A stretch of DNA of 62,499 bases, the filler included. It is 7 parts of 7 records of this genome, joined end to end, with 100 filler letters (N's around TTAATTAATTAA, not from the genome) between each part and the next. Parts side by side here need not be neighbours in the genome. Positions count along the whole stretch, not along the records: positions 41,524 to 49,387 come from SRR7504441_26; 6 more parts are not named here. One strand, given 5' to 3'. The position numbers and the translations under genes were made by a program. Below are positions 12,790 through 54,556 of this stretch, piece after piece. The notes under the pieces were generated by a model that saw nothing but the letters and a program-made list of their open reading frames with translations, made no database searches and was not told the origin of the DNA. Numbering within the stretch: the stretch's first letter is position 1; every line of letters starts with the position of its first letter.

Positions 12790-12889
12790 NNNNNNNNNNN
12801 NNNNNNNNNNNNNNNNNNNNNNNNNNNNNNNNNTTAATTAATTAANNNNNNNNNNNNNNNNNNNNNNNNNNNNNNNNNNNNNNNNNNNN
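12790..12889. other. Artificial contig linker
   Basis: N44-TTAATTAATTAA-N44, which places stops in all six frames. Confidence 0.99.
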
Positions 12890-24616: not shown

Positions 24617-24716
24617 NNNNNNNNNNNNNNNNNNNNNNNNNNNNNNNNNNNNNNNNNNNNTTAATTAATTAANNNNNNNNNNNNNNNNNNNNNNNNNNNN
24701 NNNNNNNNNNNNNNNN
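24617..24716. other. Artificial contig linker
   Basis: N44-TTAATTAATTAA-N44. Confidence 0.99.
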
Positions 24717-34962: not shown

Positions 34963-35062
34963 NNNNNNNNNNNNNNNNNNNNNNNNNNNNNNNNNNNNNN
35001 NNNNNNTTAATTAATTAANNNNNNNNNNNNNNNNNNNNNNNNNNNNNNNNNNNNNNNNNNNN
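34963..35062. other. Artificial contig linker
   Basis: N44-TTAATTAATTAA-N44. Confidence 0.99.
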
Positions 35063-41423: not shown

Positions 41424-41523
41424 NNNNNNNNNNNNNNNNNNNNNNNNNNNNNNNNNNNNNNNNNNNNTTAATTAATTAANNNNNNNNNNNNNNNNNNNNN
41501 NNNNNNNNNNNNNNNNNNNNNNN
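41424..41523. other. Artificial contig linker
   Basis: N44-TTAATTAATTAA-N44. Confidence 0.99.
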
Positions 41524-41939: not shown

Positions 41940-42911
41940 CTAATACAAAGAGCAGCTTGGCATTTGCTTCGCCGGCCGCTCTTGCACGTCCTGCTGAATA
42001 TTCTCACACATCACCTTGTAAACGCTCTTGCCCTTGAACCGGCCGCTGTCCGAAGTCTTGAGCGCCGTCGCGTCCCAGAACGATTGGACTATTGGGTAGA
42101 CGAATCGATAGCCTTTGGCCTCTTGGAGCTTCAGGTTGGCGATCCTGTCCACCAGCGCGGCCGCCACCTGATCCGGGCTGCTGCTCTGCGAGAACCGGAT
42201 CATCTCGCCCTTGAAGTCGATGTACAGCAGTCGATCGGTGACCGACTTGTCCTTGGTCAACGAAGACAGCTGCTTCCAGTTCGGTTCGGCCCCAGCTGCG
42301 CCTTCCGCGTCCACCACGGTCCCGAAGTCCGCAATGCTGGCCAGCCCAAGTGCGTTGTGGTAACCGCCCACGTTGTTCACCGCCAGCCGCTGCCAGCCCT
42401 GCCGCCTTAGCGCCTCGAGCACCGAGCGGACGGTGGACTGGTTGTACTCGCTCGCAAAGTTGGCCCAATTATCGAGCCCGAGCATCGTCATCCGAGGCGC
42501 CACCGGCAGCGCGAGCAGCCGCCGGGCTGTCTCGAACAGTGTGCCCTTGCCGTACTCATACAGAGAGAGCCTGGGCATGATCTGGCATCCGTGCGCGCCC
42601 AACGCCGCGCTCTGGTTCAGGAAGGTGCCAACGGTCATCGGCGGCTGGCCCGGGGAGACCGGGACCGGGGCGGACAGGTTGGCGTTCCCGGAGAAGTAGC
42701 GCTCGAGCACGGACGGCTTGATGTCGCTGATCATGCGCAGCACGTCGGTGGCGGTGTGGTTGGGCAGCTGCCAGGCGCTCTGGTTGGTCCACTCGTGCCG
42801 CTCGGGCGTGCTCATCACCCGGATCCGCAGCCACACCGCAGGCGCCCGCCCCGCCGCCCCGACCAGCAGCAGCCCGGCCCACAGCACCCCGGACGCTAGG
42901 CGGCAACCCAT
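41940..42911 (-). CDS. Secreted intronless protein, possible (beta/alpha)8 glycoside-hydrolase-like fold
   Basis: Signal peptide and N-glycosylation sequons (NQS, NHT, NLS). Short hydrophobic strands (IMPRL, MLGLD, LAVN, LLYID, FVYP) alternate with helices. Confidence 0.6.
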   Translation of the reverse strand: MGCRLASGVLWAGLLLVGAAGRAPAVWLRIRVMSTPERHEWTNQSAWQLPNHTATDVLRMISDIKPSVLERYFSGNANLSAPVPVSPGQPPMTVGTFLNQSAALGAHGCQIMPRLSLYEYGKGTLFETARRLLALPVAPRMTMLGLDNWANFASEYNQSTVRSVLEALRRQGWQRLAVNNVGGYHNALGLASIADFGTVVDAEGAAGAEPNWKQLSSLTKDKSVTDRLLYIDFKGEMIRFSQSSSPDQVAAALVDRIANLKLQEAKGYRFVYPIVQSFWDATALKTSDSGRFKGKSVYKVMCENIQQDVQERPAKQMPSCSLY

Positions 42912-43069: not shown

Positions 43070-46000
43070 ATGCGCCAGCTGGCTGCCCGGCCAGCCGCCT
43101 GGCTGGCCGCGGTGGTTGCGTGGGGGTATCCGTGCTCCCAGCAGCCGCCCGCGCCCACACCGTGCTGCCTGCCCCCCGGCAAGTGCACGGGGAGTCCGTG
43201 CGCGGATCGGACTCAGTGCAGGAGCTCTGCCGGCTGGTGCGGCAAGGGCGACCAGTGGTGCAACGCCCGCTCGCAGTGGGCCGAAACCGGCTGCCCGCCG
43301 TACTCGGGCTCGTGCGCCCGGGTGTCCAACGGGTATATGGCCAGACTGGAGCACAGCCAGGTTCCGGATTGGCAGTGCGGCAAAGCCCACGGGAACCGGC
43401 TGTCGACCGCGTGCGGGGCCACACCGCAGGGGGGCTCCGGCTGGTGCTGCAACGCCGAGGGCTGGTGCGGCCAGGGTGAGCGGCATTGCGAGCCCCGGTG
43501 CGACCCAGCCTCGCCCTTCTGCGGCGCGGGCTGGCTCAAGGACTCGAACAACAGCTGGGCCCGGCTGGGCGAGGGGCTGCCCTTGTACTGGCAGGCTTAT
43601 GCGCTGGTGTCTCCGATGGGCAACGCAATCCCGTCCAGCAGGCTTTACACGTTCGGCGGTGCCAACGGCAGTCCGCAGGCCCAGCGGCCTGGGGCCTGTT
43701 CGAATGCTCAGGGGCCCAGGCGGCGTAGGGGTGGCAATCCCTGCTCTGTTGTGCTTGAGACGCGAGACCTTCTGAGCCCCGGACTGAGCTCCCGGACCGC
43801 ATACATTGACCTCAGTTCGGGCCAGCTGGTCGAGCTCAGCGAGACCTATGGGCTGACTGCTCGTTTTGGCGCAGCGATGGCCAGTGTGTCAGGGCTGCTG
43901 CTGCTTTTTGGTGGGGCCACATCGATGTTTTCGTGCTGCTCCAACCTGATGCAACTGGACTTGAGCCGACCCCAGTTCTGGGTGCCTTACAGTGTAGCCG
44001 GGGTGCAGCACGGGTGCGATGCCGGCCCTTCTGCGCCGCCCCGCCGGTATGGGCACACATTGACTGCTGCTGCTGAGTGGCTGGTGCTGTTTGGCGGTTG
44101 CACTAAGCCGGAGATTATAGGGGTTGTGCACAGCGGAGATCATGGGGCGCAAGCACAGGATATTGAGCCTGCGGATGTCCTGGGCGACACGTGGCTACTC
44201 AACACTTTCAATTCTGATTCTGAGTGGATTCAACTCTCGAACGCGGGGAACATTCAGCCGAGATTCTTCCATGCGGCGGCGGCACACGGCAGTCGGGTCT
44301 ATGTCCACGGAGGTCTCTCAGTGTCCGAGAAACAGCCGCGCAAGATCCTTGAGACGCACGCGGAGCTGTATGTACTAGACACACATGACAGTACACAAGG
44401 CTGGCAGTTACTCTCCTCTGTAGCCCAACCCGATATTTTCTTCCGGGATAATTTGAAAAACGGGGAACCGTGTCGAACAAGCGGGATGGGGACCACGTGC
44501 ACCTATGCCCGTGCACCTATACAGCCTGTACCGGTGACCGCGCGATACAGTCACGTGCTTGGAGTGGTGGACAACATGCTAATCCTCTCAGGCGGCGCTG
44601 TGATTCCACCCAACTCAGACTACCCTTGTGGCGATCGGAAGACAGCCAACTGGTACCCACCGCACAATCCAGCCATCAATAGAACAAGCACGACTGGGCT
44701 GCCTGAGAGATTCCATGTGACCAGCTATAACTCGATTCTGAATGATACTTGGAGGTTGGACCTGTCGATCACCGAGACCTCCCAGCAGTGGATCCCGGTG
44801 GTACCAGCGGACTATCGCCTCGGGCTACCAGCAAGGTACGGACACGCAGGAGGGGGCACTTGCGGCCAGTACGTGATTGCCGGAGGCATCGAGAATTTGG
44901 CCAATGACAATGCGGTTTCAGGGGATATGACACACTCAATAGTTATAAACAGCACTCCAAAGCTGCAGAAGAGTGCGTGGCTTCTGAAATGGAGTACGCA
45001 GGCCGGGAATACATTCGAGGCCCACGCTGGAACAGGAGGATGGGGCGGCGATTGTACCTGCCCGGACGGCCAGAAATACCAGGTGGGAGACCGAAACAAT
45101 GCTTGCGGATCTCTGGCCTGCATTGGCGGTCGATCTGGCCAGTGCAATAAGTACGGCGGTGATTGGTCGGGCAACAAAGTCACATGCAGGCCACCGGAAA
45201 TCTACAGAGCGAAGCACGACCAATACTTCGAACACGCCCTTCGGTTTTCCCTCAGCGGTGATAAGATTGTCCTCGCCTCTGGTGAATTCCATTTGGATGC
45301 TGTGGAGATATCAAAAAATATTTCTATAACTGGGAACGGCGAGCAAACAACCCTAGTCGTGTTTGGCCTACGGATAGCCTGTGGGGCTTCGGTCGGCCTC
45401 AGAAACCTGACGATTCTGCAAGGCAGAATGCACAGCTATATGCAAGTGCATTCAGGGACGTTGACTGCGTTCCACGTGACCTTCAGAAACATGCACGCAT
45501 CGCAAGGTGGCGCTATCTCAATTCTTGGGAATGCAGTTTTTGATCGCTGTGCTTTCATCAATGTCTCGGCCAGCCAGGCCGGGGGGGCTCTGTGGCTTGC
45601 ATCTGGTGCTCAGGCAGAACTTCGCAACTCCAACGCCACAACGGTATCTGCCAAAGCAGGGCAGGGTGGGTTTGCGTTTGTGTCGTCTTCCGCCTTGCTC
45701 AGTTTGATTAACTGCTCCATTTCCCACTCCGAGGCTTCTGATGGCGGGGCCATCTTTTCAGAGGGAAATGTCAGCATCGTGAACAGCACACTCGTAAACA
45801 ATCAAGCCCACTTTGGAGCTGCGGTCTACTCGATGGGTCATACTCGTATTGTTGAATCACGGCTCTCCAATAACCAAGCCACGGCGCTTGGTGGCGCTAT
45901 TGCTGTGCTTGGGGGTCGACTGGAGATGCTGTCAAGCCGCGCATCAAATAACCATGCAACATCTGGAGGTGGATTCCTGGCGGTTTTCAGCGATTCAGAC

Positions 46001-49000
46001 GTAAGTGTGACAGCGTGCAACATCTCCTCCAGCTCAGCCGAGTCTGGTGGGGCTATCCTTCTGATGCCGTCTGATCAGCCTGTAATCAACTCAGCGACCG
46101 AATTTGTCTTTAATCTCAAAGGCGCAAATAACAATAGCAAGCTGCAGGTAATCGGCAGTGCAATAGTTGGGAACAAAGCGAGTAGAGGAGGTGCGATGCA
46201 CATCCTATGCTGCACTACAGTAGTGTTGAACTGTACGTTTGAAGCCAACCGTGCCACACAATACGACGGCGGCGCCATTCTAATCGAACCTCAGCTCCTT
46301 TTGCCTGCAAGCGCATCGCTTGAGAAGGTCCACTTCATCGGGAATTCAGCGGCAGGCATGGGTGGAGCGTTGATGGGCAGTTGGGGGTCCATGGCCTCCG
46401 ATAAAGACCTGCTTCTAAACGAAATTCATTGCCTCGACAACAGTGCTCATCATGGTGGCTGCGCGTACCTCAGCAACGCAGCATTGACAGCACGTCGCAT
46501 TGAAATCAGCGGCTGCTGTGCCCAGTCAACAGGACTAGGCAGCGGGGTCTACCTGTATGAAACGACTGGCAACTTAAGTCTCGTCTCGATTTCAAGAGGG
46601 GCCCGGGCCTGTACATCGTGGAGAGGAGGTGGAGTGGCCATCGTCGAGTCGCATGTTGTCATGACAAATCTGTCAGTCACTGGGCTTGTGGCATCAAATG
46701 GGGCTGGAGTCTTCGTGCAAGATAGCCTGTTAACACTGCTTGGTCCAAAGATCGATCGGTGCAATAGCACAGGCAGCGGTGGCGGGCTTCATGTTCTGCG
46801 AAGCCAGGTTATAGTGCAGTCAGGAAACATAATCAGCTGCAAGGCGGCTACAGGGGGAGGCATCTTCATGGCTGGTGGCGACGTAAGAGGGGCAATGGCC
46901 CTGCGGGCATCACAGGCAGTCAGTAATATGCCAGTAGCCGCGCTCATGTCACTGACCAATCTCCAAATGCTCAGCAACTCAGCATTGCAAAATGGCGGTG
47001 GACTAGCTGTCGAGATGTCTGCTGCATCTGCTTTGACAATGTCCATGACAGATGTTCATATTGGATCCTCAATAGCAGCAGCGCAAGGTGGTGGCATCTA
47101 TTTGCTTAGCCCGGATCTTTATCCCGATGCCCTTTGCCCAATGCTTACTTCAGCATCAGTTACCCGTTGCTCTGCCCAAGTAGGAGGCGGAATCTACCTT
47201 GAATCCAACAGTCTATCGACTGATGCGATTCCCTGCTCTACTGTATTCGGAAATAACGCGTCAGCATATGGTCCAAATCTTGCCACTGGCACCGCAGAGC
47301 TGTACTGCCCGTCTTTAAGAGTGGCTGCACCTCCCATGGAGGCCTTTGAGGTGTCAGTTGAGCTTAGGGACGCCTACGGGTCGATAGTAACCACGCAGAG
47401 CAGTGGAAATGTAGAGCTGCAGAGCATACCCAATGCCATGAGACGGAGCGGCGGGGAGATGCTGAACCACACAACATCATTGCTGAAGGGTACTACAGTG
47501 GCTCCAGTGATTGCTGGCCTTGCGCTCTTTTCAGAGCTGAAGTTTCAACAGGTGAATGCAGACCAAGCCAATCATGTATTGAGCTTCCATAGTGGGCTGG
47601 TCCCGCGTAGTGTGGCGTCAGTGACCATTGAAACGAGTGGTTGCGGCGAACAGAAGATGCTCTGTACTTGCGACGACAGTCAATGTCCCTGTGAATTGCA
47701 TCTCGAAGGGTACAGCAGCTGTACACCTACGCCTCCACCACCAAAGGTCTCTATTCTTTGGTATGTATTACCGCCTTCGCTACTTGTGGCCATCGTTGGT
47801 GGAGTTCTAGCTGCTGTGTGGATTTGGAGGTGGTATCGGACCCGGCGAGCGCTGGCAATCCACACGTCTCTAAAGATGAGCTTGCTGGGAGAATCGACGG
47901 ATGAGGACGGCGAGGATCAGGGCACAAGTTTGGATGTAATAGTCAGCGTCTGGTCGCCTCACCGGAAGTTTGCGATGCGTGTGATGGACTACTTGAGTAA
48001 GGCCGGGCTGAGCATTGCTGGGCCAGTCGACGACCTCGTGCCAGATGAAGACTGGGATGCCTGGTGCCGGCCCACCTCACAGCGAGTAACTGAGCCTTGA
48101 GGCCCAGGTGGTGTTTAGCTTGTAAGCGTGCAAGGATATTTCTCCCGATTCTATGCGGCGAATTCCCATTCTCTCACGAGTGTGAGACCGAGCTGACATA
48201 TGCAGAGGACCAAGGGAAGGTGTGCCGCGTGACAGGGCCATCTTGACGGCTGAGTCAGACCATCATTCCCCTGTTGTTCGATTTTGAAGGATTCCGGGCA
48301 GCTTGTCAGGAGGGCCAGGAGACGTCAGGTGGATTGCTCAGGTTTAAGTCTGTCGAGGATAAACTGTCCGCAAGGAGCAGGTCTGAGCCCGCCATGAAAC
48401 CAGCTGACGGTGGCTGTAGGATTCCCAAGCTGGAAGCGATACTTAACCGAAGCAATAGGATCCCCGGTGGCCGAGACTTTCACCGCGAGGAAGGGCTGTT
48501 CGAGGAGGATGCTGAGCAAGTGCTTCTTGCAGTGAAGCGGCAGTTAGATTTCCATCAGCTGGTGCGGAAAATAAGCGACAAAGAGGACGACGAGATGCTG
48601 ACTGGTGTGGCACTGGATGAGATGATCGCAACATATCACTTAGGGCCTGAGTACACAGACTGCGAGGTAGTATTATCCTATCAATCTAAGCAGACGGACT
48701 TCCTATACAAACTCAAGGCCAGCTTGATGGATCATGGGATAGCAGCAGTAGATGGCTCCATGGTGAGTCCTCCTGCCATCTAACCTGTAAGCGCATGTCG
48801 TACAGGTGCCACCAGGTGAAGATTGGCGAAAGGTTTGGTTCCCTGCATGTGAGCGCGCCACTGTGGTGATTGCAATCCTTTCGCAGTCTTTTATGCACTC
48901 AGCAGCCTGTGACATGGAGTTGCAGTTCGCCGCCGACCGGAACAAAGTAATAATTCCCGTGTTTTATCACAGCGCACAGCAAATCGAGGACCACATCGCG

Positions 49001-49225
49001 CAGATCGAGAGCACGGAAGCCCGAGCGGCGATAAAGATGCGGTGGGACACATTTCTAGGGATTCGGAGCACGTGCAAAATCAGGGTGCCCCGGCAGGACG
49101 GTCCAATCACTAATCGGTGCTTCGAGAATTGCTATGATGAGAATATACTTTGCTTACTAGATGCGCTCCGTGAGTGTCTAGCAAATTCGAACAAGCACGT
49201 AGTGCATGTAAAATCGCATGTGTAA
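43070..49225 (+). CDS. Single-pass receptor (~2009 aa): hevein-like x2, Kelch propeller, Cys module, beta-helix (GGA repeats), TM, tandem TIR domains; introns 48064-48107, 48220-48258, 48763-48805
   Basis: CCNAEGWCGQGERHC..CDP...C; six RxGH/FGG Kelch motifs; repeated NxAxxGGAI; TM ILWYVLPPSLLVAIVGGVLAAVWIW. TIR1: DVIVSV...IFLPIL...HECETEL...IIPLLF. TIR2: EVVLSYQ...VVIAILSQSFMHSAACDMEL...IIPVFY. Confidence 0.85.
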
Positions 49226-49387
49226 TTAATGTCTATCATTATACTTTATTTTATGACAGATCGAAGTGGTGATACAGGCAGCTGACAGGCATCTCTGCGC
49301 GGATCAGGCCGTTGCTCGTGGACCCCGGCGGCACGCGGGATAGCTTGTGCGGCATGACGGGCGAGCTCTCCACGTTCCGGGTGGGCA

Positions 49388-49487
49388 NNNNNNNNNNNNN
49401 NNNNNNNNNNNNNNNNNNNNNNNNNNNNNNNTTAATTAATTAANNNNNNNNNNNNNNNNNNNNNNNNNNNNNNNNNNNNNNNNNNNN
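49388..49487. other. Artificial contig linker
   Basis: N44-TTAATTAATTAA-N44. Confidence 0.99.
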
Positions 49488-49723: not shown

Positions 49724-52700
49724 TCACACCTCTTCATCACTATCACTTTTATCTGGGACGTCGTGGACAATGTCTGTGGGAACCTCAGCTTCTTCGACTT
49801 CCATGGGTTCATCTGCACGTTCCGGCAATGTGTTGTCACCGTCATCATGCTCAAGCTGGGTTTTTCTAGCTGGCGCATTAACTTCTGCAGGATGCTGCTC
49901 AATCACCATGGACATTCCACCATCCTACCACACAGAGAAATCAGATGGGACCAGATAAGACTCAAAGACACGAGTGAAAAAGCAGCAGCTCCGCAACGAT
50001 CAAGAATCAACTAGTAAATGCCCAAAGTGATCCAAGCCAGTCAAATTCAAGCCAGACAGATTCAGACCTGTGGGTCTGCCAGCGAAGCCATTGCTGTTGA
50101 AAACACCTTCCGCAGCTGCAACGAACTGTTGTATATCTCAGAACCCTGACAAAAATAGGTTATAGCAACAGGCACACAAAAGAAATCGGTGAATTTGCAC
50201 ATGAAGCAGAATTCATACACATACCTCTAAGTTGAAAGACTCAGCATTCTTGAACATCAGCTCCATGTCGGCTTTGAAATCAGATGCATTCTGATATGGC
50301 TTCCTCTTACCTGAAAGAAAAGATCAACAACGCTTATCTCACTGCAAGTGCATCGAAGCCTAGTAGCGCCTACCTTTGAGCCGACTCTCGATTGTTAGCA
50401 GGTCAATTGGATTGCTGATGATTGTATAGTAGTATGGAAGCTCTTTCCGTGTTGGGAGCTTGACGAACAGTTCGCAGACCTGTCCATTTATCACAAGACA
50501 TGTAGCAGCAGTAGATTTCGTGGCCCATCACACAACATTCTCACAGGGTTGGAAGTCAAGTGGCAAGCTACCTGGTCTCCAGCTTCGTCTTTAAGATCGT
50601 ACACTGCTTGATAGGCAGGCATCAGCTTGCTTGCGAGTTGCTGCCATGCTCCATCATCATCGTCTGAGAGGCTTTCATCTTCGTCCCTTCGACGTTTTTT
50701 CCGAACCCTCGCTGAAACAGGCACACACGATCATTGATTGGTCTATATCTCCTGGTGGAATGATTAGGTAGGGACAGATGTACCTGGTCTTTGCTTCTTC
50801 TGCGCTTCTGTGCCATCTGGTGCTCCCTCCCTGCATAGTCTCTCGAATTCGCGTTCGCTCATCTCTGTATATCTCACTTCACTCTTCCTTCGAGCACCAC
50901 GACCCATTTCCAGCAAGTCGTCTTCGGATTCTTCACTTGCCTTACCATCATCATTCTCCAGTTGCATTGTCTGGTACCATTCAGGAGCCTAAAACGAGGA
51001 AGGGCAATATATCAGTCCATCTTGAGTTGGCAAAGGAAAATCACCTCGCCGAGAGCAAACAGAGGTGGTATAGTGTAATTGTACCGCTCATAAGGTTCAG
51101 CGTTCCCTTGATCCATCTTGTCAAATAGCTGCTTCTCATCCTCGTTCCGTGCTAACATGTCATTGATCTGACCGGTAATCAAGGGGCCACACCATTACAT
51201 GCACAATTACCTGCTCATCTGTGGCAACTCCCTCTTCATCATAATCCTCGTTATCCTCCTCAAGTACAGCTCTCAAGGCCTCTTTGCGGTCTTGGTTGGT
51301 CGATTTGTTGTTAAACTTACCTGCTTGGATAACCTTAGCATCAAGCCGTAGCTTTTCTGTAGCTCGGCTAAGGATCTGTTCCTCGACTGCTGAGCAGGTC
51401 ACAAACCTCAGCACACGAACCTACAAAACACAGATGCATTCAGCATGGATAAAGTGCGCTTAGGAAATTCAATCAAATTACCTCTTGTTGCTGTCCGATT
51501 CTGTGTGCACGATCTTGTGCTTGTAAGTCCATTTGAGGATTCCAATCTGAGTCAAAAATGATGACAGTGTCTGCAGACTGGAGGTTGAGTCCAAGACCAC
51601 CAGCCCTAGTCGAAAGAAGAAAGACAAAAATGTCTCGATCCACTAGAAACTGTGCCATGCGTTCCTGTCGGTCATCAGCTTTCGTCGCCCCATCCAGGCG
51701 GACGAAGCGGTAGCCACGGAACCCAAAATAATCCTCAATGACATCCATACACGATGTCATTTGAGAAAACAGAAGTACACGATGACCTGTTCGATGCAAT
51801 TTGGGAAGAATATTATCAAGTACCCGAAATTTCCCGCTTGAACGAACAATATCTTCGTCAATATTCCATTCAGTCAGGAAGAGGTATGGGTGATTGACCA
51901 CCTTTCTCAGCTGCATTAAGGTGTTCATCAAGGAGCGTGAACCTGGCTTACCAGTGGTAGGATCCGCTTCAGTCCTTCCACGTTCCCGGATATCGTGATA
52001 GAACTTTTTCTGCCAACCAGACAGGTCGATCTTGACTATCTTCTCCACTTTCTCAGGGAGCTGACCCATAACTTCAGACTTGAGTCTGCGAAGCAGGAAA
52101 GGCCTCAATACTTGATGGAGACGATTCACAATCAAAATTGTCTCCTCTTCAGTCAGTTCAACTTTTTCTCCTGTATTAGCCAATGGTGCAGCAAACCAAT
52201 TCTCGAAGTTATCAACTGAATTGAAAATTGTTGGCAGTAGAAAGTTGAGCAAAGCCCACAGCTCAGGAATGCCATTTTGCAGAGGTGTGCCAGTCAGGAG
52301 TACGCGATTCTTCGACTGATATTGGGTACCAAGAATTTGAGCCAACTTACAGCTTGAATTCTTCATTCGGTGGCCCTCATCCACAATAATGTACTTCCAT
52401 GAGCGGAACCCCTTGTATGGACGAGTGAGGGCAGTTTTATCCCTCATGGCGTAGTCGTACGTTGTCAGTACAACATTGAAATCACCCTCACCAATATCTT
52501 GTGCCATGAGCCTTTTCCGTTCTCCAGGGGTGCCCTTATACACGACGAGTTTAAGATCTGGGCACCACTTACCAAACTCGTTTGACCAATTGGATACTGT
52601 GGAAAGCGGTACAATAATGAGCCAAGGTCCATGTTCACCCTTTGATTCATAAAGATAAGCAAGCAAGGCGATAGTTTGAATGGTCTTTCCAAGGCCCATT

Positions 52701-54456
52701 TCATCTGCAAGGATTCCGTTTAGATTATTGTTGTGCAGTGAGACTAGCCACTTCAAGCCATGCATCTGGTATTCCTTCAGCTTCCCACCCACAAGCATTT
52801 GAGGCTGCTCCGTAATCTCTTCCATGACACCGTGAGCGAGAGTATAGTATTCATCCTTTCTTTTTCGCAGCTGTGTAAGGGTCTGATCATCTTCACCCTC
52901 TGCCCCTTCCACCTCCTCGTCATCCAGCTCCATGATCTCATCTGCCTCCTCGCCAGCTTTGATAGAGGTTTCTTCGAAGTTCCATGGATCCACAGCTTTG
53001 GGAGCATCCTTCTCAACTTCCCTGTCATCTGGCTCTGGTTGCTTATCTTCTGCCTCTGATGCCACTTCCGATTGTGCAGCAGCAGGCTCAGCGCTGGCAT
53101 CGTTGGCAGCATCACCACCTGGTGCAGCTTCCTCTGCAGTGGCATCACCCTCGCCATCCTTCTTCTTCTTCCTACGTGGGGTGCTTGGCAGGTCCTCACT
53201 AATTTGCTGCTGCTGCTTGTTGATCAGTGCACCAATCTGCTGGAGGTAGCTATCTGTTTGATTGAGCAGCGTCATAAGTCTGTCGTTTTTGCCTGATTTG
53301 AGCAGCCTGAAATATTCTTCCTCATTGTTTTCCTTCAGAGCTTTGAGACGTTCTTTCTCTTGCTTCTCTTTCTCCAGCTTTTCATTCCTCAGCTTCGTAT
53401 TGCGCGCCAGAGCCACCTGAACCATTCAGCTCAGCCCAAAGAATACACAGTGGGACCTGTCGCCAGAGTCTCTGGTCGCGCTGCTTACGTTGCTTGTGAA
53501 ATTCACGGAAGGATTTGGCATGATTTAAGACGTGTCTCAAATACTCCCTGTGAGCCTGACGCTGCTGGGCCAGCCGCTGTCTTTGCTTTGCGCCTGTGGA
53601 GCATCGTCTCAGATGGAACAATTGGTTCAGGCTACCCATTCGAAGCATCTCCTCAGATTCACCGTCGCCAGATGCGAGCATTGTTGGGGTGTAAAATTGG
53701 AGTTGCTGTCGGTTTTCAACTAGCACCGATTGAACCTGCCAGCAACTACCCTCAACCCGCTTTAACACTACTGCACGTACTTTGGGGGTGGCCAATCGGC
53801 GATAAGTCATCTGCGGAGGCCTGACTCCTTCGGAAGCAACCACTTGCTGACGAAGCTGGGGCAGAAGTCAGCGCGGGACCAGCTCGACCGTCACCTGTCG
53901 CTGGAGTTTGCTCAGCCGAAGTTGCTTGAGCTCAATCAAAGCTCTCAGCCGAGACTCGTTAGACAGCGGCCCCCGCAGGTCTGTCCAAGCTATCAGGTGC
54001 ACCTGCAGCTGCCAACACCCACCTGACAACTCCCGCACCCTTTGCTCCACTCTCAAGTCCCCGCTGGGCTGCACCCCCGGCTTCTTGTACAGAGATCTCA
54101 AGCGCGCCTCCGCAGGCTGTTCCACACCCAACAAGTCAGCTGCCGAGTTTTGGCAGGCTGGCGCCTGCTCCAGCTCCGGTTGTCCCCAGCCTGGTGCTAC
54201 GAGATTCCGGTGGTTATACACGTGCTTGTCTTGAAACTCAGCGCCATCGCTAAGGATCGCTTCGGCCTCCGTCTCCTGGAGACAGCGATTAATCCCGCGG
54301 GCTTGGCAGCTATCAGACCGAGATTTCCCCGTTGATCGCGGCCAGAGCTGCGTCGGGGACCGGAAGATTGCGTGCAAGCAGGCGGAAGGCATAGAGCTGC
54401 GCCCGAAGTTGCAATTGCTGCGCATCTGTGAGGGCAGACGGCGGCTTTGTGCTCAT
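49724..54456 (-). CDS. SNF2: SWI/SNF ATPase Snf2/BRM/BRG1 (QLQ, HSA, SNF2 ATPase, SnAC, bromodomain); many introns
   Basis: QLQ motif [22 protein letters not shown] follows the ATG at the contig edge. Then [47 protein letters not shown] and bromodomain LFVKLP...YY.II.NPIDL...NAESFN. Confidence 0.95.
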
Positions 54457-54556
54457 NNNNNNNNNNNNNNNNNNNNNNNNNNNNNNNNNNNNNNNNNNNN
54501 TTAATTAATTAANNNNNNNNNNNNNNNNNNNNNNNNNNNNNNNNNNNNNNNNNNNN
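54457..54556. other. Artificial contig linker
   Basis: N44-TTAATTAATTAA-N44. Confidence 0.99.

Follow-up and report, generated by a model that had tools for sequence, protein, structure and literature searches.

A gene at positions 43070-49225 (plus strand) of a 62.5-kb window of metagenome DNA was found to be split by three short introns and to encode a predicted membrane receptor of 2010 amino acids (aa), with a very large ectodomain outside and two unlike TIR domains inside the cell. By the window we mean the whole stretch of DNA that was analysed; it consists of seven separate contigs, one of which carries the gene. Our preferred reading, to which we assign a probability of roughly one half, is that this single-pass surface receptor is clustered by a multivalent ligand and that the second TIR domain (TIR2) would then process NAD+ with the first (TIR1) as its partner. 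That there is one gene with the layout of a receptor we hold to be highly probable, and the evidence for this part is given first. The functional claims are no more than plausible and are weighed afterwards.

The initial annotation had joined three open reading frames (ORFs) across three introns into one protein of ~2009 aa. The ORFs lie where it had placed them (43070-48100 with 1676 aa, 48274-48783 and 48806-49225) and the joining is borne out as well; the length needed a small correction, as the spliced coding sequence comprises 6033 nucleotides (nt) and is translated into 2010 aa followed by a stop. All coordinates of exons, introns and domains are collected in Table 1. We compared the translated joins with five homologous proteins (P0084, P0094, P0089, P0099 and P0083) by BLASTP. 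Junctions 2 and 3 were crossed without a gap, and one gap of a single residue was placed a few residues upstream of junction 1; the intron 1 join amounts to a one-residue insertion relative to the homologues. At least three of the TIR homologues are transcriptome-derived EukProt entries. We also built a profile hidden Markov model (HMM) from 18 shorter TIR proteins of other organisms (alignment A1), with no sequence of the window among them. On the spliced protein this model found two whole units, TIR1 and TIR2, and on the unspliced frames it found five pieces (profile positions 31-80, 80-120, 148-184, 37-75 and 69-191), whose profile coordinates abut at the intron borders. As expected of DNA, one metagenome contig (run X1) contains intron 2 unspliced and another (run X4) intron 3. 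Across the metagenome contigs we counted 31 coding differences, with 22 of them synonymous and 20 at third codon positions.

The alternative at this level is that we are looking at two genes, a pseudogene or an assembly join, and that the ectodomain gene ends at the stop codon at 48098-48100. Three points weigh in its favour: all three junctions were placed by sequence homology, the N-terminal half of TIR1 that lies within the big ORF reaches only 1.6 bits by itself with the A1 HMM, and the source contig stems from a fragmented metagenome assembly. However, the exon at 48127-48219 contains no Met and begins in the middle of a domain, and the big ORF closes, behind the transmembrane (TM) span, with exactly the first strands and the P-x-E-D-W loop that TIR1 is missing there. 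Three in-phase joins restore colinearity with the family profile. Furthermore, independent metagenome contigs that span 47761-48062 and 48141-48326 each show no more than one difference, and the excess of synonymous differences continues through the region. We regard two separate genes as very improbable, and a single intron-split gene, with its junctions predicted from homology, as strongly supported. Two other splicing choices were tried and rejected. An acceptor for intron 2 at 48288-48289 shifts the frame and leads to a stop after 35 codons. A fourth intron at 49220-49259 (40 nt, GT..AG) would span the stop codon and add 27 codons; nothing supports it, and we read this stretch as 3' untranslated region because its GC content of 0.23 is unlike the 0.51-0.64 of the three supported introns. 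The initial annotation was also right that the ORF track hides the gene: ORF-based calling on eukaryotic metagenome contigs misses receptors that lie behind 40-nt introns.

The two TIR units differ clearly in how well they fit the family. TIR2 scored 138.2 bits with the A1 HMM (E 1.5e-42, profile 37-189) and TIR1 61.3 bits (E 4e-19, profile 31-184). The Pfam scan agrees with the TIR identity proposed earlier: exon 4 alone matched TIR_2 (PF13676) with 35.7 bits (E 1.4e-8, cut-off 28), although it lacks the first third of the domain. For the three exon pieces of TIR1, scanned separately, Pfam reported no TIR match. Members of the A1 model themselves pass TIR_2, for example P0084 at 49 bits. By BLASTP, TIR1 is 32% identical to P0084 over 177 aa, and the core of TIR2 is 52% identical to P0094. 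The two units share 27% identity with each other and each is nearer to TIRs of other organisms, so the pair is old and differentiated.

Exon 4 was used to search 1.84 billion representative proteins and gave 65 matches, and 18 of the shorter ones make up A1. Proteins of the receptor's subfamily were seen in marine metagenomes and transcriptomes and in the transcriptome of Telonema (P0088, Telonema subtile). The subfamily can be recognised by a V-P-P-G-x-D-W-R loop, by S-x-A-C-x-x-E in helix alphaC and by P-K-L-E and N-R-x-P in an extension at the C-terminus; N-R-x-P is present in 21 of the 65 matches. The other large group among them has tandem N-terminal TIRs, in many cases with hydrophobic spans, and the two members scanned (P0085 and P0087) carry a CHASE2 domain after the tandem TIRs; we take this group to be bacterial because of its architecture and not from a source name. 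Within the subfamily the TIR is combined with ARM repeats (P0083, P0278 and P0149), with a protein kinase domain (P0088, P0086 and P0131), with five TM spans, a kinase domain and several TIRs (P0285) or with a single TM span. By profile and motifs both TIRs of the receptor are assigned to this protist-specific subfamily, which consists of a core TIR and a C-terminal extension with N-R-x-P at its end. When the subfamily profile was compared to PDB, the best of 59 matches was the bacterial NADase Cat1 (48 bits, 1.2e-11), followed by TLR6 (4e-7), TLR1 (2e-6) and TLR2/15. Plant TIRs and SARM1 were weaker, with E values from 1e-4 to 0.02, as was MyD88. As a side observation, P0285 has five and P0289 three hydrophobic spans before the TIRs, and in P0285 the kinase domain precedes several TIR units (Pfam). 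P0285 is thereby a membrane kinase-TIR layout outside choanoflagellates.

That the product is a type I membrane protein, as had been proposed, agrees with a signal-peptide-like start, one TM span and two TIRs after it. The ATG is the first codon after an in-frame stop and is followed by a hydrophobic stretch (KD 1.94 over 10 aa, aa 9-18). The highest 19-aa hydropathy value in the protein, 2.14, lies at aa 1567, and the next best is 1.59. N-glycosylation sequons show the same polarity, with 20 before the TM span and one after it. Between tip and membrane the ectodomain is made up of several unlike parts. No leucine-rich repeat (LRR) family was found in the Pfam scans of the 1676-aa ectodomain ORF or of its pieces. 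An NCBIfam scan of the ORF gave 0 matches.

The first part is a Cys-rich tip, in which the initial annotation had seen two hevein/CBM18-like motifs. Both Cys motifs are present (aa 50-64 and 126-140), and both score below the family cut-off. Chitin_bind_1 (PF00187; cut-off 27.8 bits) is the sole Pfam family that matches the tip at all: motif 2 reached 20.0 bits (E 8e-4, profile 1-35 of 38), motif 1 reached 11.3 bits (E 0.42) and the whole 177-aa tip 19.4 bits. We therefore use hevein-like as a fair description and not as a family assignment. Hevein domains have a knot of eight Cys, with Ser and aromatic residues that bind sugar. Motif 2 has the CC-x5-C-x6-C spacing of the hevein core, with one upstream Cys missing; motif 1 lacks the first Cys of the CC pair. 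Of the three aromatic positions, one or two are kept in the receptor tip.

The Kelch region passes the Pfam cut-offs, with PF24681 at 67.3 bits (cut-off 50; aa 263-447), Kelch_4 at 33.5 (21.6) and Kelch_3 at 32.9 (22). Its six blades, as previously described, were found again by a motif count of six xxxGG strands (aa 193, 278, 339, 411, 505 and 602). A comparison with the Attractin/LZTR1 propeller model gave 41 bits, below the Pfam cut-off. Behind the propeller follows a module of six Cys. Modules with 55-70% identity to it occur, singly or as repeats, in eight proteins that are otherwise unrelated (P0150-P0157). It has 16 invariant columns; five of the six Cys are among them, and the sixth is kept wherever the aligned stretch reaches it. 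It is marked by G-G-W-G-G as lead-in, by C-T-C-P-D-G in its core and by V-G-D at a turn. P0150 has as many as about seven copies, and in P0154 the module adjoins a GH16 glycosidase domain. Pfam gave no match for it and PDB gave two chance-level matches with the region and 0 with the profile, so we consider it a candidate new domain family. Perhaps it binds carbohydrate.

The long GGA(I) stalk that had been described as a beta-helix shows 16 GG[AGF][ILVMAF] motifs at steps of 25-31 aa or multiples thereof. The family model Chlam_PMP stays below its cut-off on the stalk (16.2 bits vs 20.6). The stalk is ~780 aa long and contains 15 N-x-S/T sequons. For two homologous proteins the families were clear, with Chlam_PMP at 237.6 bits on P0002 (E 2e-74) and Beta_helix at 143 bits on P0004 (E 8e-42). 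Next to the membrane, the Cys-rich stretch gave a weak, sub-threshold match to a TNFR-type stalk and TM model (PF12191, 20.5 bits vs 24.9).

In its layout the receptor is like animal and choanoflagellate Toll-like receptors (TLRs): a signal peptide (here a signal-peptide-like start), a large repeat ectodomain, a Cys-rich juxtamembrane piece, one TM span and a cytosolic TIR. TLR6, TLR1 and TLR2/15 are also among the best PDB matches of its TIR profile, and TLR1 and TLR6 have the C-x-x-E-L motif as well. Unlike TLRs it has no detected LRR and two TIRs instead of one, and these come from a protist subfamily of their own, which is extended at the C-terminus. What is supported is a layout like that of TLRs, not membership among them. 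The LRR-TM-TIR combination was described as confined to choanozoans (Richter et al. 2018). A published counterpart in layout is a membrane TIR protein of Gephyrocapsa huxleyi, cogent1101_i1, for which an extracellular region, a TM span and an intracellular TIR with the Glu were reported (Shaler et al. 2025, PMC12489294); the same report proposes for it the role of a receptor that makes signalling molecules. By that description the two share extracellular region, TM span and Glu-bearing TIR in a marine protist. The G. huxleyi ectodomain is described as EGF-like or leucine-binding-like and its TIR as single, which sets it apart from the receptor here.

Partial counterparts have also been described in other protists. 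Dictyostelium TirE has two tandem TIRs and RCC1 repeats, and TirC is a membrane-tethered NADase with only an N-terminal helix (Culbertson et al. 2026). The receptor resembles TirE in having tandem diverged TIRs in one protist protein and TirC in being a membrane-anchored protist TIR; going by their description, neither TirE nor TirC has a sensor ectodomain. The same holds for choanoflagellate Kinase-TIRs as reported, to which the link is that the receptor's subfamily is also fused to kinases (P0088, P0131 and P0285). In its stalk the receptor is like chlamydial Pmp proteins, with which it shares the GGA(I) repeats, even though the PMP model is below cut-off on the receptor itself.

Our own searches for the whole architecture returned none. 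The protein search with the whole ORF gave 81 matches, none of which lists Kelch or TIR; all Pfam families listed for them are beta-helix, PMP or adhesin-repeat families (the matched region was checked for P0002). With residues 1-720 we obtained 8 matches, all confined to the six-Cys module. A metagenome scan with the ORF gave 51 pattern matches of which 0 were confirmed, and a scan with the TIR alignment gave 204 pattern matches and four loci, none with similarity to the ectodomain. The reach of these protein and locus searches is limited, and their outcome is no proof of absence. Neither did we find a hevein-Kelch-PMP-TIR receptor in the published literature, in a survey that did not extend to the supplements of the three papers nearest to the subject. 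The earlier view that the architecture is undescribed agrees with these searches for the full combination; it goes too far for the extracellular-TM-TIR concept, which is already in print going by what Shaler et al. (2025) report. Already known are the marine-protist extracellular-TM-TIR protein (2025) as well as tandem protist TIRs and a membrane-tethered NADase (Culbertson et al. 2026) and active protist TIR NADases (2026 preprint). New are the combination of two differentiated TIRs with an ectodomain made of hevein-like tip, Kelch region, six-Cys module and PMP helix, and the recognition of a modular protist TIR subfamily.

We then have to ask what the TIR tail does. The initial annotation had called both TIRs catalytically intact. 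A Glu in the catalytic column is present in both and its codons had been placed correctly (48190-48192 in TIR1 and 48917-48919 in TIR2), but intact catalysis is not established by this. The Glu aligns with active-site residue E74 of Cat1 and is invariant in all 18 sequences of a further alignment (A2). According to the description of Cat1, its active site is lined by S7, D33, S68 and E74, among others, E74 is needed for function and the NADase site is built from two TIRs (PMC12162218). The residues of the second subunit in Cat1 are K121 and Y122. TIR2 and the consensus of the family keep the equivalents of S7, D33 and S68; TLR6 has His at D33. In these respects the receptor is like Cat1 among the NADase TIRs (Cat1, SARM1, plant TNL and TIR-only proteins, ThsB and AbTIR). 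It is unlike the NADase TIRs in the missing Trp before the Glu, in the weak matches to SARM1 and plant TIRs and in its membrane receptor context. Glu-dependent production of cyclic ADP-ribose (cADPR) has been reported for choanoflagellate, amoebozoan, cryptophyte and oomycete TIRs and likewise for the TIR of TLR4 (Hurieva et al. 2026 preprint). The contrast that had been drawn with animal TLRs as pure scaffolds is dated in the light of the TLR4 result as reported there.

Several observations weigh against an enzymatic tail. The C-x-x-E-L motif, which had been offered as a mark of NADase TIRs, is not diagnostic: it aligns equally well with W-C-H-Y-E-L of TLR1 and TLR6, to both of which it is common. 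Surveyed across TIRs, the alphaC Glu was found in >70% of all and in >90% of a TLR1-type subgroup, and its presence did not track activity (Toshchakov & Neuwald 2020); TLR2, IL-1R9 and IL-1R10 were reported as inactive despite the Glu (Hurieva et al. 2026). By profile alignment TIR1 has Pro at the position of Cat1 D33. The Trp that lies four residues upstream of the Glu in SARM1, and that is described as binding the ligand (Toshchakov & Neuwald 2020), is replaced by Glu in TIR1, by Ala in TIR2 and mostly by Ala in the family. The PADLOC models for defence TIRs gave 0 matches for four TIR proteins, and the subfamily's fusions with protein kinases and ARM repeats also fit scaffold signalling. 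The Glu is necessary and not sufficient for NADase activity. From sequence comparison we put NAD+ catalysis by at least one of the two TIRs at slightly less than an even chance.

These points lead directly to the main alternative, in which the architecture is the same and the TIRs are pure scaffolds that recruit soluble kinase-TIR or ARM-TIR proteins. The receptor would then be the protist counterpart of TLR-MyD88-IRAK signalling with no NAD+ chemistry. The kinase fusions (P0088, P0086, P0131 and P0285) and ARM fusions (P0083, P0278 and P0149) of the very same TIR subfamily are what such a pathway would use, direct kinase-TIR signalling has been proposed in choanoflagellates (Richter et al. 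2018), and the sharing of C-x-x-E-L with TLR1 and TLR6 as well as the loss of the ligand-contacting Trp point the same way. On the other side, the Glu is invariant, the equivalents of Cat1 S7, D33 and S68 are conserved and several protist TIRs assayed elsewhere were reported to be active enzymes. The two roles are also compatible with each other. Taken by itself we think a pure scaffold unlikely, while as an account of the data it is nearly as good as the enzymatic one.

Whichever role applies, the receptor probably signals by clustering of its TIRs, judging from its architecture. In the available reports, NADase activity of TIRs requires their self-association. As to the ligand, the hevein-like tip and the module associated with GH16 give no more than a hint at glycans. 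The initial annotation went further and proposed chitin binding: Chitin_bind_1 is indeed the only Pfam match of the tip, both motifs are below the cut-off and binding is a guess. Sub-threshold hevein matches and a phmmer comparison of the tip with PDB sequences, which gave 0 matches, also weigh against it. We consider a chitin-like ligand doubtful on this evidence.

The preferred reading of a clustered, NAD+-processing receptor would work as follows. Tip, propeller, six-Cys module and glycosylated stalk would stand outside the cell and the two unlike TIRs inside. The receptor would be clustered by a multivalent ligand, for which a polymer on the surface of prey, parasite or virus is the most likely candidate, and the TIR pairs of neighbouring chains would meet. 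The canonical TIR2 could then convert NAD+ to a cADPR-type signal or deplete it, and the diverged TIR1 may serve as its partner within the chain, completing or regulating an active site made of two TIRs. With two unlike TIRs, each chain could supply one asymmetric contact, as in Cat1-type sites. In a stronger form, which seems quite unlikely to us, the receptor might be a pattern-recognition pathway in one protein: a polymeric glycan bound at the tip would cluster the stalks, and two receptors would suffice for a composite NADase site. TIR1-TIR2 would form a ready-made asymmetric dimer that turns a surface event into a cADPR-type messenger or a collapse of NAD+. On this account it might serve as the membrane sensor in a TIR network found throughout protists, with TM-TIR, kinase-TIR and ARM-TIR proteins of one subfamily, that arose by evolution in parallel to TLR-MyD88-IRAK.

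It is also conceivable that the protein is an adhesin or a protein for cell-cell or prey contact, and that its TIR tail merely tunes cytoskeletal or mating responses. The stalk does resemble bacterial PMP and 'outer membrane repeat' proteins of the adhesin type, the potential for N-glycosylation is heavy, and NB-ARC, LRR and Death domains were absent from the Pfam scans. However, two TIR units with conserved pocket residues would be a costly tail for a plain adhesin, and the TIR-bearing membrane proteins of G. huxleyi were reported as virus-induced (PMC12489294). We hold a plain adhesin to be improbable.

TIR signalling beyond animals, plants and bacteria is only now being charted, and an atlas of eukaryotic TIRs describes uncharacterised eukaryote-only clades (Culbertson et al. 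2026). Further landmarks are the first protist TIRs reported as active enzymes (Hurieva et al. 2026) and the virus-induced membrane TIR proteins of G. huxleyi, an alga that forms blooms (Shaler et al. 2025). The gene is a concrete and well-delimited case, in which a very large lectin- or adhesin-like ectodomain is wired to two differentiated TIRs of a protist subfamily whose members also occur with kinases, ARM repeats and membrane anchors. With an enzymatic tail, a marine protist would couple recognition at its surface directly to NAD+-derived signalling, which matters for the way plankton sense prey, parasites and viruses. With a scaffold tail, the gene would represent an independent invention of TLR-like adaptor signalling.

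Table 1. Positions of the receptor gene, its predicted domains and other features, counted along the whole window.
Feature	Positions	Strand	Basis or remark
Exons of the receptor gene	43070-48085, 48127-48219, 48259-48762, 48806-49225	+	GT-AG splicing
Start codon and signal-peptide-like N-terminus, aa 1-25	43070-43144	+	hydropathy
Cys-rich tip, aa 26-165, 17 Cys	43145-43564	+	two hevein-like motifs, 43217-43261 and 43445-43489
Kelch beta-propeller region, aa ~166-645	43565-45004	+	six blades by motif count
Six-Cys module, ~57 aa, aa 650-706	45017-45187	+	homology
PMP-type right-handed beta-helix stalk, aa ~720-1500	45227-47569	+	repeat motifs, homologues
Cys-rich juxtamembrane stretch, aa 1501-1560, 6 Cys	47570-47749	+	
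Single TM helix and Arg-rich cytosolic flank, aa ~1561-1592	47750-47845	+	hydropathy
TIR unit 1, aa 1613-1795, diverged, split by introns 1 and 2	47906-48534	+	family HMM
Intron 1	48086-48126	+	41 nt, GT..AG, phase 0
Intron 2	48220-48258	+	39 nt, GT..AG, phase 0
TIR unit 2, aa 1836-1997, canonical for the family, split by intron 3	48655-49183	+	family HMM
Intron 3	48763-48805	+	43 nt, GT..AG, phase 0
Stop codon TAA	49223-49225	+	AT-rich stretch after it
Neighbouring ORF, 323 aa, head-to-head with the receptor gene	41940-42911	-	158 nt from the receptor ATG
SNF2/Brahma-type ATPase gene	50165-53552	-	gaps of 58 and 34 nt between colinear tblastn pieces
Linkers between contigs	12790-12889, 24617-24716, 34963-35062, 41424-41523, 49388-49487, 54457-54556		

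The seven contigs of the window are separated by linkers of the form N44-TTAATTAATTAA-N44. As they are separate contigs, genes on either side of a linker have no physical linkage, and the setting of the receptor gene is limited to its own 7.9-kb contig (41524-49387). The other contigs carry eukaryotic genes, such as those for an SNF2 ATPase and a protein kinase. The host of the gene is an uncultured marine protist and the gene is nuclear. Aquatic and marine metagenome runs from six studies contain near-identical DNA at low depth. In all, 11 runs were found, nine of them with part of the stretch and all guessed to be DNA; the contig comparison used short DNA contigs from four of these runs (X1, X2, X4 and X6) in four studies. 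For the SNF2 ORF on the adjoining contig, none of the 120 matches listed exceeded 65% identity, and the top identities among them (63-65%) were to oomycetes and to unnamed EukProt and other entries. The two gaps within this gene suggest that introns of ~35-60 nt are typical of the organism, in line with the three short introns of the receptor gene.

Some minor observations concern the receptor contig. A scan for Rfam families and tandem repeats found none. The ORF that lies head-to-head with the receptor gene matched no family in the Pfam scan; it has a signal-peptide-like start and codon-position GC of 0.60/0.50/0.86, a pattern as in real genes here. Within the receptor gene the third-position GC is 0.88 over the first 200 codons and about 0.46-0.66 thereafter, and the overall GC over 2-kb windows drops from 0.67 to 0.48 in the 5'-to-3' direction within 43070-49225. 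Finally, one metagenome contig of run X1 matches the gene as far as 43060, which is 10 nt upstream of the ATG, and has 164 unlike letters beyond it. This suggests that a related strain or a paralogue has another 5' flank.

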